In this document: positions 17,544 to 63,940 of the stretch, piece by piece
Layout: each line of letters opens with the position of its first letter
How positions within the stretch are numbered: the first letter of the stretch is position 1
Program-made: the position numbers and the translations under genes
Notes under the pieces: generated by a model
The model's database searches: none
Seen by the model: the letters and a program-made list of their open reading frames with translations, nothing else
What the model was told of the DNA's origin: nothing
DNA from: Eledone cirrhosa
Lineage: Eukaryota
Assembly (NCBI GenBank): GCA_964016885.1
Contig: OZ024752.1
Span: forward strand, 28,458,001 to 28,522,000
Direction of reading: 5' to 3'
DNA: 64,000 bases

Positions 17544-18130
17544 AATTAGAATTGGTGCTCTGAAATAGCGATATATATATGAATGTATATATAGTGTATT
17601 TTGCAATACACTGTATGCTTAATTAAAAGCATTTTGAAGACCATACGCTATTGTTTTAAAGTAGCGACATTGTCGCTTACTTAATTTTCTGCAAACAGGG
17701 GGAGATAAGTTGAAAGCGTTGTTTCGTACTATTTGGAACTTGTCAAAACTCACTACTCTCCCCGTCTGCTGAATATTATGTGTGTTGGATAGAATTAAAT
17801 TAGTTGGATATAATTAAATTAGAATTGCAGTAACAATCAGGAACTGATTCTAATTTTCAATTTCTGCTGGGCCAGCGACCGCTCTGTAAAATCAGTTTCC
17901 GATTGTTACTGGAATTCTATAAGAATCCAACACACGTAATGTTCGGCAGACGTGGAGAGTTGTGAGTTTTGACAAGTAGCAATTAGTACGAAACAGTGCT
18001 GTCAACTTATCTCCCCCTGTCTGCCGAAGATTTAAGTAAGCGACAATGTCGCTACTTTATAACAATAGCGTATGGTCTTCAAAATGCTTTTAATTAAGGC
18101 ATACAGTGTATTGCAAAATACACTATATAT
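17544..18130. mobile_element. Family B foldback element, copy 1 (diverged arms)
   Basis: Inverted arms around a spacer shared with other copies; hammerhead motif in each arm; ends in (TA)n. Confidence 0.85.
17964..18008 (+). ncRNA. Minimal type I hammerhead ribozyme, U3:A8 variant (family B)
   Basis: gagtt-TTGACAA-gta..tac-GAAA-cagtgctg-TC^aactt; degenerate partner on the minus strand at 17707-17751. Confidence 0.7.
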
Positions 18131-18295
18131 ACATTCATATATATATATATATATATATATATATATATATATATATATATATAAGTATGTATATATATAT
18201 ATATAAATATATATATATATATATATATATATATATATATATATATATATATATATATATATATATATATATATATATATATATATATATATATA

Positions 18296-19918
18296 TATTG
18301 GTGAACGGAATAGAAAATGCTGACAAATTGTTCACAGTGAAAAATAGTTTAATTAGGAATAAGTGAGAATTAGTAATAGTATTGGTTAGTATTCAGTTTT
18401 GGTTTTAAGTTTTACCGGTTGCGCATTTCTAATGCTTTTCAAAAATAATTTTGAGATAGAGCGTCCGTGATGTTTGCTCTGATCTGATTAGTTTTGGGAA
18501 TTCTACCTGTTTTTATGTTAAAAAAGTGGCTCCAGCGGTATTAAAATAAGTTTTGCGCCAATTCGTGTTGCAAAAATTCTTGTGGTCAAAACAATTTTGA
18601 TTGGTCGGTAGAGGTCATGTGAATGTAAAAACTGATTTTGCGCCAAATGTAGGTTTGTGTCGGCTGACTGAGAAATAAGTCTTTCACAACAAATATGTGT
18701 GTGTATGTGTGTGTAGTAGTAGTAGTAAAGTGGTTCGTTGTTGTGATAATGGTCAGCAGGGATGTGTGTGCGAACCGCAGCCTGTTGACAGTTCAAATGC
18801 CTATTAAGACAAGTGTGTGTGTGTGTGTGTGTGTGTGTGTGTGTGTGTGTGTGTGTGTGTGTGTCTGTGTGTGTGTGTGTGTGTGTGTGTGTGTGTGTGT
18901 GTGTGTGTGTGTGTGTGTGTGTGTGTGTGTGTGTGTGTGTAGCAGAGTAATTCGTGGTAGAGGGATGGTCAGTAGGAATGTGTCTGTAAGTGTGTGGGGG
19001 ATATTTTAACATGTTAAAAGATATATTTTCAGCTCTTGTCTTATACGGAGAAGTGTGTGTGTGTGTGTGTATGTCTCTTTGTATGTTAATGTACGCGTGT
19101 GTATGTGTGTGTATATATGTGTGTGTGTGTGTGTGGTAAAATGGTGTACATTATTCGATATTTTCAGTAAAATCGATTCTCTCAATAGAACATCAAAAAC
19201 CTTAATAATAAAAGGTATGAAATGATATATAGTATTGGCATAATACCAAGGTGTGTGTGAGTGTGTCCAGATTGTACGTACTGCAAGGGGGGTACATTAG
19301 GCCTTGCCGTATTGGAATACCTGTGCACAAATATGTATCTGGAGTGTGTCCAGACACACACACACACACACACACTTGTCTTAATATGCATTTGAACTGT
19401 CAACAGGCTGCAGTTCGCACACACATCCCTGCTGACCATTATCACAACAACGAACCTCTTTACTACTACTACACACACACACATATTTGTTGTGAAAGAC
19501 TTATTTCTCAGTCAGCCGACACAAACCTACATTTGGCGCAAAATCAATTTTTTACATTCACATGACCTCTACCGACCAATCAAAATTGTTTTGACCACAA
19601 GAATTTTTGCAACACGAATTGGCGCAAAACTTATTTTAATACCGCTGGAGCCACTTTTTTAACATAAAAACAGGTAGAATTCCCAAAACTAATCAGATCA
19701 GAGCAAACATCACGGACGCTCTATCTCAAAATTATTTTTGAAAAGCATTAGAAATGCGCAACCGGTAAAACTTAAAACCAAAACTGAATACTAACCAATA
19801 CTATTACTAATTCTCACTTATTCCTAATTAAACTATTTTTCACTGTGAACAATTTGTCAGCATTTTCTATTTCGTTTACCAATATAACATAACTTGTGTG
19901 TTACACCTCTATTCTTTT
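18296..19918. repeat. Long inverted repeat element (arms about 18296-18830 and 19354-19885) between (TA)n tracts
   Basis: Arms are near-identical reverse complements, also visible as mirrored ORFs 18518-19012 (-) and 19251-19565 (+). Confidence 0.9.
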
Positions 19919-20152
19919 ATATATATATATATATATATATATATATATATATATATATATATATATATATATATATATATATATATTAGAATTGGTGCTC
20001 TGAAATAGCGATATATATATATATGAATGTATATATAGTGTATTTTGCAATACACTGTATGCTTAATTAAAAGCATTTCGAAGCCCTTACGCTATTGTTT
20101 TAGAGTAGTGACAGTCTCACTTACTTCAATTTTCAGCAAACAGGGGAGATGA

Positions 20153-20197
20153 AGCTGACAGAGCTCTGTTTCACACTTTTTGGTGCTTATCAAAGCT
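20153..20197 (-). ncRNA. Minimal type I hammerhead ribozyme, U3:A8 variant (family B, opposite arm)
   Basis: Exact reverse complement of 20397-20441. Confidence 0.72.
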
Positions 20198-20396
20198 ACC
20201 TACTCCGCCTGTTTGCTGAAAATTGTGAATGTTTGATTCTTATAGAATTCCAGTAATAATCAGGAACTGGTTATACCAATTCTAATTTTCAATTTCTGCT
20301 TGACCGGCAACCGCTCTGTATAATCAGTTCCTGATTATTACTAGAATTCTATAAGAATCAAACATTCACAATTTTCAGCAAACAGGCGGAGTAGGT

Positions 20397-60959: not shown

Positions 60960-61500
60960 CTCATATGCTCCTTAATGTCCACCAGTACGGCTTCCATAAA
61001 TCAATTCCACTGTAAATCTGCTGTCATATGTCATTATTCAAAAGTGTGTCTTCAAAAGTGAGTCTTATATCTTGAGAATTTGACCCAAACAATGACGTTT
61101 CAATTGATACCATCAAACTATTTGACCGTGTCTAGTATACAAAGGTCCTAGTTATGGTGCCTATCTATAGAAGGTATCGGTTTCCCCGTCTCTTGAAGCG
61201 ATTGCTGACTGTACTATATGATCAAATGCTTAATTATAACCTTCCATCACTACATGAATGTCATCATTGCTGAAACGTCCAACGCAAAGAATTTCTTGAC
61301 AGATAATAATATCATCCATCAATGCCGTATCACTTATTTGTATATACATGCAACCAAAATAATATTCCATCAATATTGCTCAAATGATGATATCGTTGAT
61401 CACCGTACTATTCTTCCCTTGTGGAAATCGAGCTTGAATCATTTAACATTACAACAGAACTATTTCACCTCAACTGGCCCTACTTTCTTGAAATATTTCA
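60960..61500 (+). mobile_element. Ancient LINE RT relic
   Basis: Decayed RT motifs LLNVHQYGFHKS (about 60968-61003) and VSIDTIKLFDRV* (about 61097-61135). Confidence 0.5.
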
Positions 61501-62516
61501 ATGCAGAAAATAATACCGTAACATCCACATGGTTGTGGGACTAATCTCTTCAATACGTTCTATATAAATCACCTACATCCAGATATGTTTCGGCCAATAA
61601 TGTGTGAGCTATGTGTTTATGTATACGTAGTTTTCTCGTATTGTTTGTGGACAAACATCCCACTTAATTGAAATGCATTTGTCTTTATCTAAATTATTGC
61701 TTCATCTTTTTTATTTTATAGTGTGTGTGTGTTAGAGATAGATAGAGAGAGAGAGAGTGTGTGTGTGTATGCATGTGTGTGTATGTCTGTGTGTGTGAGC
61801 ATATGTGTGTATGTCTGTGTGTGTGAGCATATGTGTGTATGTGTAACGGTGCCAATCATATTAGAATTAGTGAAATTTCTTCTATAGAGAAATACAGATA
61901 TGTGGACCACTATAGTGAGAGGAATTCAATCACAAGATATTGCTTACGTGATATATACACAATCTAGGATTCAGAAACCGCACGAAACTACCTTAGACAC
62001 ATAATACTCTCACCTATTTGGAATACACATGATGGTCCTTCGTCAGTTTCGACAATCACTGTTCCAGTTGTTTGATTAACATAACTGCCTGCTCATGAAA
62101 TTAACGTGTAAGTGGCTAAACATTCCACAGTACTTAACACCACAACTCTCCCGCTGGGCAGTCATTGTTTCATATCCAGCCGACCACACCGGTCCTCACA
62201 AACCCATACCTACACACGTACGCGCGCTCATGTATAAGCACCCCAATTAAAAACAAAAGCACAAACACACACACACACACAAACGCACACACACACACAT
62301 ACACACGCACACACAAATAAAATTAGGAATAAACGCGCGCGCACACACACATTCACATTAAAATATGTATATATATATGCACACGAGTAGCCTTCCCTAT
62401 GCACTCAAATACATATGCCCACATCCACGAAACGAAATAGGGCCAATGCTTATATATATATATATACCCATCATTTCATAGAACACAGCAAACACTGGAA
62501 TTTTTGTTTTTTGTCG

Positions 62517-62616
62517 GATCACCAGTCTGATGAGCAGATAGATAATGCAGACGAGTTAATACCTTTTATGGATGACTTTCACCCAATCCTCTGCGAAACG
62601 CGCGTAACAGGTCGAT
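62517..62616 (+). ncRNA. Type I hammerhead ribozyme motif with a long loop II
   Basis: accagt-CTGATGA-gcaga...tctgc-GAAA-cgcgcg-TA^acaggt (one stem I mismatch), then AATAAA and (TA)n. Confidence 0.72.
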
Positions 62617-63081
62617 ACACAATAAAATGAAATAACTAGATCGAAACGATAGTTCATCGTTTTCATATATATATATACACACATATATATACACACATAT
62701 ATATACATATACACATACACACACACATATATGATATATATGTGTGTGTGTGTGTGCGTGTGTGTGTGTGTGCGTGTGTGTGCATGTATGTATCTATGTA
62801 TATATGTATATATATATATGTGTATTTGTGTTTGTGTATGTATGTATATATGTATATATATATATATGTGTATGCGTGTATATATAATAATTTGTATATT
62901 TATACGGCTGCAACAAACACAGATACCTTCTAAATTTTTATTTCTATGTCAAATTTTGTAATAGGAAATAACAGAAAAGTAATCACGAAATGATGATCGG
63001 AATAACTATATATATATATATATATATATATATATATATATATATATATATATATATATATATATATATATATATATATAT

Positions 63082-63940
63082 ACAGACGTACAGTAGTATG
63101 TATATATATACATACATGCACACATATATATATGTACGTATGGATTCACCAAACATTTATTATAATGCTCGGTGTGTTTGTAAACAAACATCCCGTATTA
63201 AGCCGTAGTGTCTAGCAACCACCGTTGCTCGTTTTTGTTCAACTCTGACAAAGGAACGCTGTACTAGTTTCAAGCTTGTTAGCTATCGTCAGCAACGTAT
63301 ACCTTCCTGCCAGATAGTTGAACGTCCGAAAGTATATACTTTCCTTATGCATATTAACGGCTGAGTAGCCCAATTTGCATATCGAGTGGGCTAATCGGCC
63401 GGGTGCACCGAAAACGATAAACGGAAAAAATGAAACGAAATTTCATTTCCCACTCTTTGTACGTCCGTTACTTAAATATAAGTGAATCCATACGTACAGT
63501 AGTATGTATATATATATATACATACATGCATATATACACACACACATATATATATATATATATATATATATATATATATATATATATATATATATATATA
63601 TATATATATACACTACTGTACGTCTGTATACATATGTGTATGTACGTATACATACTTATATTTAATATATACATGCACACATATATATATGTACGTATGG
63701 ATTCACCGAACATTTATTATAATAAGCTTGAAACTAGTACAGCGTTCCTTTGACAGTGTTGAACAAATGAGCAATGATGGTTGCTAGACACTACGGCTTA
63801 ATTCGGGATGTTTGTTTACAAATATCCCGAGCATTATAATAAATGTTCGGTGAATCCATACGTACATATTTATATGTGTGCATGTATGTATATATATATA
63901 CAAACTACTGTACGTCTATATACATATATGTATGTACGTA
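63082..63940. repeat. Nested inverted-repeat element next to (TA)n, with a hammerhead motif
   Basis: 63082-63275 pairs with 63724-63920; shorter internal inverted copies surround the (TA)n at 63548-63610. Confidence 0.8.
63256..63298 (-). ncRNA. Minimal type I hammerhead ribozyme motif
   Basis: acgttg-CTGACGA-t agct aaca agct t-GAAA-ctag-TA^cagcgt. Confidence 0.75.

Follow-up and report, generated by a model that had tools for sequence, protein, structure and literature searches.

Hammerhead ribozyme motifs in a cluster of putative Penelope-like and retrozyme-like insertions at (TA)n tracts of the Eledone cirrhosa genome

A stretch of 64,000 nucleotides from Eledone cirrhosa (GenBank assembly GCA_964016885.1, contig OZ024752.1, positions 28,458,001 to 28,522,000; hereafter the window) was analyzed for minimal type I hammerhead ribozymes and for the elements that carry them. 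The initial annotation had listed about 20 such motifs from about ten families beside (TA)n tracts, all of them taken to be short and non-coding. The count of ten families (A to J) was borne out. Five of them (B, C, E, F and G) are nevertheless, to judge from their sequence, 5'-truncated 3' ends of protein-coding Penelope-like elements (PLEs), and three (A, H and J) appear to be retrozyme-like tandem units without an open reading frame (ORF). Both classes offered at first, PLE termini and retrozyme-like elements, thus hold, for different families; D and I could be placed, from sequence, neither as PLE ends nor as retrozyme-like units. The window is very probably an insertion cluster produced by the machinery of endonuclease-bearing, (TA)n-targeting PLEs. 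Its features, in window coordinates and with the class assignments argued for below, are as follows.

17542..18146, both strands: older head-to-head pair of family A (retrozyme-like unit of 319 nt with a U3-A8 core); the core at 17746 (-) is decayed and that at 17969 (+) intact, with cleavage predicted after 18003.
19985..20609: head-to-head pair of family A, cores at 20193 (-) and 20401 (+); both 3' ends enter (TA)n.
21392..21600, +: short element of family D; core CUGAAGA at 21435, 3-bp stem II with U.U closure, AGUACU palindrome, C17 position at 21463.
21790..23137, -: left arm of family E, putative PLE 3' end with a 3' untranslated region (UTR) of about 2 kb and a long tail; non-canonical core at 22028.
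23122..23893, +: right arm of family E with an internal deletion and a short end; non-canonical core at 23762, C17 position at 23840.
24797..25053, -: putative PLE 3' end of family F; core CUGAUGA at 24902.
26280..28572, -: 5'-truncated Hydra-type PLE of family G; broken frames for the reverse transcriptase (RT)-thumb (27797-28558) and GIY-YIG (26835-27812) regions, and a 3' pseudo-long terminal repeat (pLTR) with a U3-A8 core at 26531 and a weak helix I.
28573..29002, +: PLE 3' end of family B, core at 28797; head-to-head with the family G copy, no TA tract between them.
31080..31878: putative PLE 3' ends of family C in head-to-head order, with cores at 31276 (-) and 31661 (+), accompanied by a short piece of tail.
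31879..32263, -: copy of family A, core at 32089, to which a short inverted arm is attached.
33676..34116, +: circularly permuted copy of family H (retrozyme-like unit of 522 nt) with a long loop 2; core CUGACGA at 33986.
34421..35447: head-to-head pair of family B, cores at 34685 (-) and 35247 (+); includes the last GIY-YIG codons.
41126..41406, +: 3' end of family B, core at 41199.
45094..45383, -: 3' end of family B, core at 45321.
62470..62680, +: older element of family I whose ribozyme region is homologous to that of E; core CUGAUGA, intact, at 62527.
63083..63945: retrozyme-like element of family J (unit of 428 nt); the minus strand holds more than one unit, with a core at 63292, and an inverted arm at 63720-63945 starts inside the ribozyme.

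Comparison of the window with itself showed that many families occur as inverted pairs with their 3' ends outward.

Motifs were sought with a type I descriptor composed of stem I, CUGANGA or UUGANAA, stem II, GAAA, stem III, UH and again stem I. Its strict form matched the window 12 times and a slightly relaxed form 13 times, compared with means of 0.18 and 0.83 (maxima of 1 and 3) over 40 local dinucleotide shuffles. A second descriptor, loosened after the motifs had been inspected (loop 2 of up to 80 nt, one mismatch tolerated), gave 15 matches, every one on the earlier list of 20 positions, against 0.4 +/- 0.58 (maximum 2) in 60 shuffles; the excess over shuffled sequence was confirmed. This descriptor found 0 matches in the reversed window and 0 in the complemented one, and the first 17.5 kb of the window had no descriptor match. 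An Rfam scan of the window gave no hammerhead family among the best 150 of 347 matches, which were microsatellite-driven miRNA matches.

The remaining five of the 20 positions comprise one decayed copy, two weak variants and two broken cores. The family A copy at 17707 is mutated in stems II and III. The family D motif at 21430 has an intact core and stem I, with a stem II of just 3 bp closed by U.U, and the family G motif at 26484 has an intact U3-A8 core and a helix I of about 2 bp. At 21947 and 23759, both of family E, the topology is kept and the core reads CUGUCGA.

Nine families (all but D) were used as queries against the genome assembly of 3.0 Gb. Candidates numbered at least 1876 (A), 836 (B), 51 (C), 2647 (E), 2208 (F), 2374 (G), 2477 (H), 2089 (I) and 1293 (J), which are first-look lower bounds and not copy numbers. 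The best genome copies were 94-100% identical to the window copy, with two exceptions: I, at 75-86%, and C, whose list falls to 84% in its tail. From about 40 scored loci per family, 10-38 were studied, top scorers throughout; four further loci of family D were taken from the flanks of other families. The 797 kb of fetched loci contained 198 distinct descriptor matches in 28 sequence clusters, compared with 3 matches in the reversed loci. Motif density was 1 per 4.3 kb in the window and, for motifs outside the queried family in the locus flanks, 1 per 8.5 kb (88 in 744 kb), both values being biased toward TA-rich insertion clusters and not a genome-wide rate. The flanks of loci L005-L188 held about 20 more hammerhead sequence clusters, several with U3-A8 cores or a long loop 2.

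Chance matches in AT-rich repetitive DNA might be suspected, given that the second descriptor was loosened after inspection and that short stems form easily. The counts in shuffled windows and reversed loci and the fixed position of the motifs in PLE termini leave this explanation a negligible probability. At the level of predicted structure, the hammerhead motifs are real.

The core was intact in most of the sampled copies of eight families (A 17/20, B 30/30, C 18/20, F 20/20, G 25/25, H 9/10, I 15/20 and J 18/20) and, by eye, in family D in the window and at four other loci. Family E had a canonical core in none of 25 copies, 20 of which read CCGUCGA. In contigs from three runs of one sample, core position 4 of E was C at about 99% depth and no change was listed at position 6; loose ends of those contigs showed a sister family of E with an intact core. 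The ribozyme call therefore stands structurally for nine of the ten families and fails for E, in which two core nucleotides are lost. By its sequence, this young family has spread with a broken core.

Family I aligns with E almost without gaps across the ribozyme, and the helices are kept between the two (91% paired, three pairs with double changes), as they are within A (94% paired, two pairs with double changes). The base pair at the foot of stem II is G10.1-C11.1 in A, B, C, E, G and I, A-U in F, U.U in D and J, and C.A in H. Self-complementarity of helix III, already recognized in the initial annotation, was found as a perfect palindrome in eight of the ten families and in imperfect form in F and B. 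The helix III self-duplex was predicted at -3 to -20 kcal/mol, with the monomer hairpin absent or weak, one variant of B being unfavourable. As modeled, the palindromes permit a dimer, with the duplex preferred over the hairpin. In the predicted monomer fold of family A the core is sequestered.

The assignment of five families to PLEs is clearest for B and G. Upstream of the motif, family B runs into a GIY-YIG frame, and a same-strand PLE protein match lies upstream at 30 of 30 B loci (29 at a fixed position) and at 20 of 25 G loci. In the window the G motif sits directly behind the broken frame 26835-28558 (-). Full pLTR-ORF-pLTR copies were found for B (L141, pLTRs 4041 bp apart) and for G (L149, 3327 bp apart; partial in L151), and L145 contains an open B frame of 1257 codons. 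No direct pLTRs around a frame were seen for C, E and F among the loci studied. Family E has a G-like endonuclease about 2 kb upstream in four of six extended loci, three of them at about -1.7 to -2.1 kb and one probably belonging to a neighbour. For F, 3 of 20 loci had a PLE protein match, all at the same position near -1320, and for C 1 of 20 had one, at -1265; a fourth match for F and a second for C belong to neighbouring elements. The matches of C and F are to the G endonuclease, and E is homologous to G.

The proteins of B and G showed no similarity detectable by BLASTP, and Pfam searches of the window and of full-length PLE frames gave no RT or GIY-YIG match for either. The closest named homolog of the B protein is an Octopus vulgaris protein with 68% identity; homologs have GIY-YIG and weak RVT_1 matches, one with PF01541. 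From a reading of its motifs, family G carries the diagnostics of the Hydra clade: RWK, DKT, a CxCX5C linker, CxxC and CxH near the C-terminus, and insertion at (TA)n. The same features, including the hammerhead, were described for the PLEs of that clade, whose endonuclease is C-terminal, and Hydra PLEs target (TA)n (Craig et al. 2021, PMC8557442). Compared with units of <3 kb in that clade, the G unit is about 3.3 kb, and the 3' UTRs of C, E and F are 1-2 kb. Family B, with DKS and a CX4CxxC linker, is a separate lineage, broadly of Neptune/Nematis type. Asparagine-rich inserts were noted in both PLE proteins (L145 880-4629 (-) and L151 4292-6562 (+)), and such inserts have been described for rotifer Penelope elements (PMC3846280).

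The proximity of the motifs to (TA)n tracts was upheld. A (TA)>=12 tract lies within 300 nt on the 3' side of 18 of the 20 cleavage sites and on the 5' side of 6, compared with 31% of random positions (p about 7e-8 for the 3' side, assuming independent copies). In each of the eight families measured, the 3' end falls at one, two or three fixed points, which lie 50-270 nt beyond the hammerhead and pass into (TA)n. Preferred ends were +150 (15) and +210 (14) among 30 copies of B, +219 (23/25) in G, and +49 (12) and +139 (8) among 20 copies of F. At least two such ends were seen in A, B, C, E, F, H and J, and one main end in G. Of 170 copies, 130 had at their end a TA run of at least 8. The tails are about 35-120 nt long, and the alternative end points correspond to the PLE 3' tail. 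The 178 5' junctions consisted of 75 same-family inversions, 31 junctions with TA, 2 inversions with another family, 35 of unknown type and 35 beyond the locus, so that inverted same-family copies make up about half of the resolved junctions (75/143).

At the end points the elements themselves contain a TA-alternating word, measuring 10 and 2 nt in A, 4 and 4 in B, 2 in C, 5 each in E, F and G, 4 and 4 in H, and 5 and 3 in J. TA microhomology of at least 4 nt (4-10 nt) was present at 9 of the 12 ends with known read-through, with a background of 2.6%; these ends are not fully independent, and the values for H were read by eye because the aligner overshot and gave 3 and 3, with which the count is 7/12. 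Family B has a longer TA word 7 nt past the cut site that is unused, showing that TA words are not sufficient for a start.

The (TA)n tracts could also be largely element-made, if a telomerase-related RT slipped on the UAUA word and added TA at the 3' junction. The strong 3' bias of the tracts, the TA words exactly at the RNA ends and the existence of copies that finish in a few TA bases are in keeping with such synthesis. Nevertheless, 31 of 68 non-inverted resolved 5' junctions adjoin TA as well, as expected for an existing tract. Moreover, inverted insertions have two outer 3' ends and so produce the bias without synthesis, and where copying is target-primed, the tract that follows the 3' end of the element is simply the primer. 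We regard element-made tracts as quite unlikely.

Upstream of the ribozyme region of A, J and H lies their own 3' end, with direct repeats at 319, 428 and 522 bp, respectively. The units (A 319, H 522 and J 428 nt) have a GC content of 0.34-0.38, a longest frame of 41-59 codons and one hammerhead each. Folded as circles they are predicted to be 64-69% paired, with z of -5 to -7 relative to mononucleotide shuffles. Arms longer than one unit were seen in 19 of 43 cases for A, 29 of 49 for J and 10 of 25 for H (58/117 in total), reaching 2.1-2.8 units, and inverted arms at 14 of 20 A, 9 of 20 J and 8 of 10 H loci. PLE protein matches lay near 1 of 20 A, 2 of 20 J and 0 of 10 H loci, at unrelated distances.

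Such tandems might alternatively be solo pLTRs or short satellites that were duplicated as DNA, through slippage or unequal crossover. PLE termini amplified locally in tandem have been discussed (Li et al. 2026, 10.64898/2026.07.22.740005), and at L201 two of three adjacent H units have the same private core change. Divergence within tandems is also not clearly below that between loci (0.029 vs 0.032 for A, 0.046 vs 0.035 for J and 0.007 vs 0.013 for H). Nevertheless, the copies are on many chromosomes and mostly have 1-3 units, and their combination of fixed 3' ends with variable 5' ends and with inverted arms is the anatomy of reverse-transcribed insertions. Duplication as DNA is therefore considered very unlikely. 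Changes shared within tandems gave no clear split between circular and linear multimer templates. An A-to-I signature was unsupported, A>G exceeding T>C in A only and not in J or H. In two unrelated J loci (L172 and L177) the upstream partial unit begins at the identical base, 12 nt past the cut site, and three family A arms begin at +13/+14.

Arm 5' ends fell exactly at the cleavage site in 1 of 117 cases and within 20 nt of it in 11, compared with 6.2 expected (p about 0.05 under a generous uniform model). A pile-up of 5' ends as a sign of cleavage in vivo was rejected. Since copying appears to start 3' of the cut site, motif-bearing copies would have been read across an uncut or re-ligated site. 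The motifs might be conserved because they serve the PLE protein as binding or folding signals, and be mostly non-catalytic in vivo. Retention of the helices and not the core in E, the helix I of about 2 bp in G and the single arm end at the cleavage site would fit this possibility, as would the observations that 8 of 9 Xenopus dimers were uncleaved (10.64898/2026.07.22.740005) and that cleavage by the Anolis Poseidon element PAc needs protein (PMC11167929). Against it, eight of the nine genome-sampled families have a mostly canonical core, two of them with a compensated U3-A8 pair. Although their stems are unrelated, about 28 clusters in the 797 kb have retained both core and palindrome, a sign of selection on catalysis. 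A mainly signalling role is judged improbable, though less so than duplication as DNA or element-made tracts.

The following mechanism is proposed for the insertion cluster. The GIY-YIG domain would cut both strands within a TA tract, and the 3' end of the target DNA would anneal to a short word of UAUA type within the RNA of the element and prime reverse transcription there. Copying would mostly stop early, or the second DNA end would also be primed, giving head-to-head pairs. The TA tracts left at the ends of an insertion could receive the next one, so that clusters grow. Units A, H and J would be retrozymes, with multimeric or circular RNA as the template and a PLE protein acting in trans as the copying enzyme, and the hammerheads would be dimer-dependent minimal ribozymes, probably processing multimeric transcripts. 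Integration would not require cutting, because reverse transcription begins 3' of the cut site and passes through it, and family E has multiplied although its core is non-canonical. For PAc, cutting of both DNA strands, two internal start sites and normal insertion of hammerhead mutants have been reported (Frangieh et al. 2024, PMC11167929).

Several points weigh against this mechanism. PAc initiates at RNA sites that are not homologous to the cut DNA (PMC11167929), and head-to-head palindromes have been explained by self-priming on an antisense template and not by use of both DNA ends (Arkhipova 2013, PMC3846280). The microhomology could be leftover target sequence captured in earlier rounds. 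As to an autonomous partner of A, H and J, no similarity to PLE references was found at E<1e-4. The frame link of C (one locus) and of F (three loci) ties these families to PLEs weakly, covariation amounts to two or three pairs among related copies, and the sampling of best-scoring loci favours young and long copies.

A more inclusive picture can be drawn, and as a whole it is tentative and may well fail in one part or another. Priming would proceed telomerase-fashion, with the (TA)n end on UAUA words, by a rule common to at least two unrelated PLE lineages and their retrozyme passengers. Insertions, possibly with RT-driven TA extension, would build the TA clusters, and the hammerhead would be dispensable, the young family E being the example of a fold retained without its catalytic core. 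The genome may hold on the order of 100,000 ribozymes, a figure derived from 28 clusters in a biased sample of 0.8 Mb.

Further features were noted. At 26280-29002 and at L017 and L191, two PLE families are joined 5' end to 5' end without a TA tract (G/B twice, F/B once), which could reflect two RNAs at one break or a deletion between neighbours. Another head-to-head inverted element lies between TA tracts at 18300-19918, in which the descriptor found no hammerhead. At least three further families of short palindromic elements flanked by TA, with no hammerhead detected, are represented at 21016-21115, 24503-24747, 29696-29810, 44323-44487, 48582-48727 and 53332-53480; possibly these are very short PLE ends. 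At 38171-40524 (+) there are broken frames of a non-LTR retrotransposon (RVT_1 match, E 2e-5), whose C-terminal part we take to resemble a restriction-like endonuclease. A repeat family at 15769-17545 has partial direct copies beside a TA tract; a 37-bp minisatellite lies at 17031-17229. A dispersed repeat of about 200 bp, resembling a short interspersed nuclear element (SINE), is found at 3177-3807 (three tandem copies), 4899-5082, 14930-15114, 30838-31025, 40835-41036 and 42419-42624. ARAGORN found no tRNA genes in the window, the SINE-like repeats included.

Each main feature of the window (hammerheads at PLE termini, retrozymes and (TA)n targeting) has published precedent. Minimal hammerheads, the U3-A8 core among their variants, were described in PLE pLTRs, and a single genome can hold thousands of motifs (Cervera and de la Pena 2014, PMC4209133). 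That metazoan set, which includes the molluscs Lottia and Crassostrea, resembles the present one in its core and U3-A8 variant, the palindromic helix III, an extra base after position 9 in some families, the many families per genome, the mostly single motifs on truncated PLEs and the opposite-strand pairs 100-700 bp apart. Unlike it, the families described here have longer palindromes, of up to 12 nt; in E, H and I loop 2 is long and structured, and one family has a fixed non-canonical core. Published counts include about 9,000 minimal motifs in Xenopus (PMC4209133), >6,000 in a coral, where they form 16 families, and as many as 120,000 in axolotl.

Non-LTR retrozymes share with A, H and J the short ORF-less tandem units, the type I hammerhead, a GC content of <45% and a highly self-paired fold, and a U.U at the base of stem II, as in D and J, is known from axolotl (PMC7229834; 10.64898/2026.07.22.740005). 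The same sources propose animal retrozymes as non-autonomous PLE derivatives. The mussel retrozyme is described as having most canonical loop 1-loop 2 tertiary contacts absent. In contrast to published retrozymes, A, H and J have PLE-type minimal hammerheads together with the full PLE insertion signature of tail ends, inversions and TA targets. As in PAc, two internal starts plus an optional tail, an AT-rich target and use of both strands were seen; the tail is 30-40 nt in PAc versus about 35-120 nt here, and its starts are non-homologous, compared with TA words of mostly 4-10 nt here (PMC11167929).

In keeping with the initial annotation, no report of cephalopod hammerheads was found in the literature searched, although the supplements of Craig et al. 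2021 and Li et al. 2026 may list cephalopod Hydra or retrozyme families. Supplementary file 2 of PMC4209133 gave no octopus entry on searching, and in the consulted parts of an Octopus vulgaris repeat annotation Penelope-like families are listed and ribozymes are never mentioned. A limited literature search likewise returned no published description of TA microhomology at start sites. This microhomology, the PLE insertion signature on retrozyme-like units and the dead-core family E, successful nonetheless, would be the additions made by the present sequences.

The young families with fixed start points are material for testing how PLE reverse transcription is primed, and the E/I pair is a natural comparison of a dead with a live core for the role of the hammerhead. 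The insertions of A, H and J add evidence that PLE proteins mobilize animal retrozymes, a view for which the previous arguments were co-occurrence and phylogeny. Much of the TA-flanked 'unknown' repeat in such genomes is, on the present evidence, PLE-derived.

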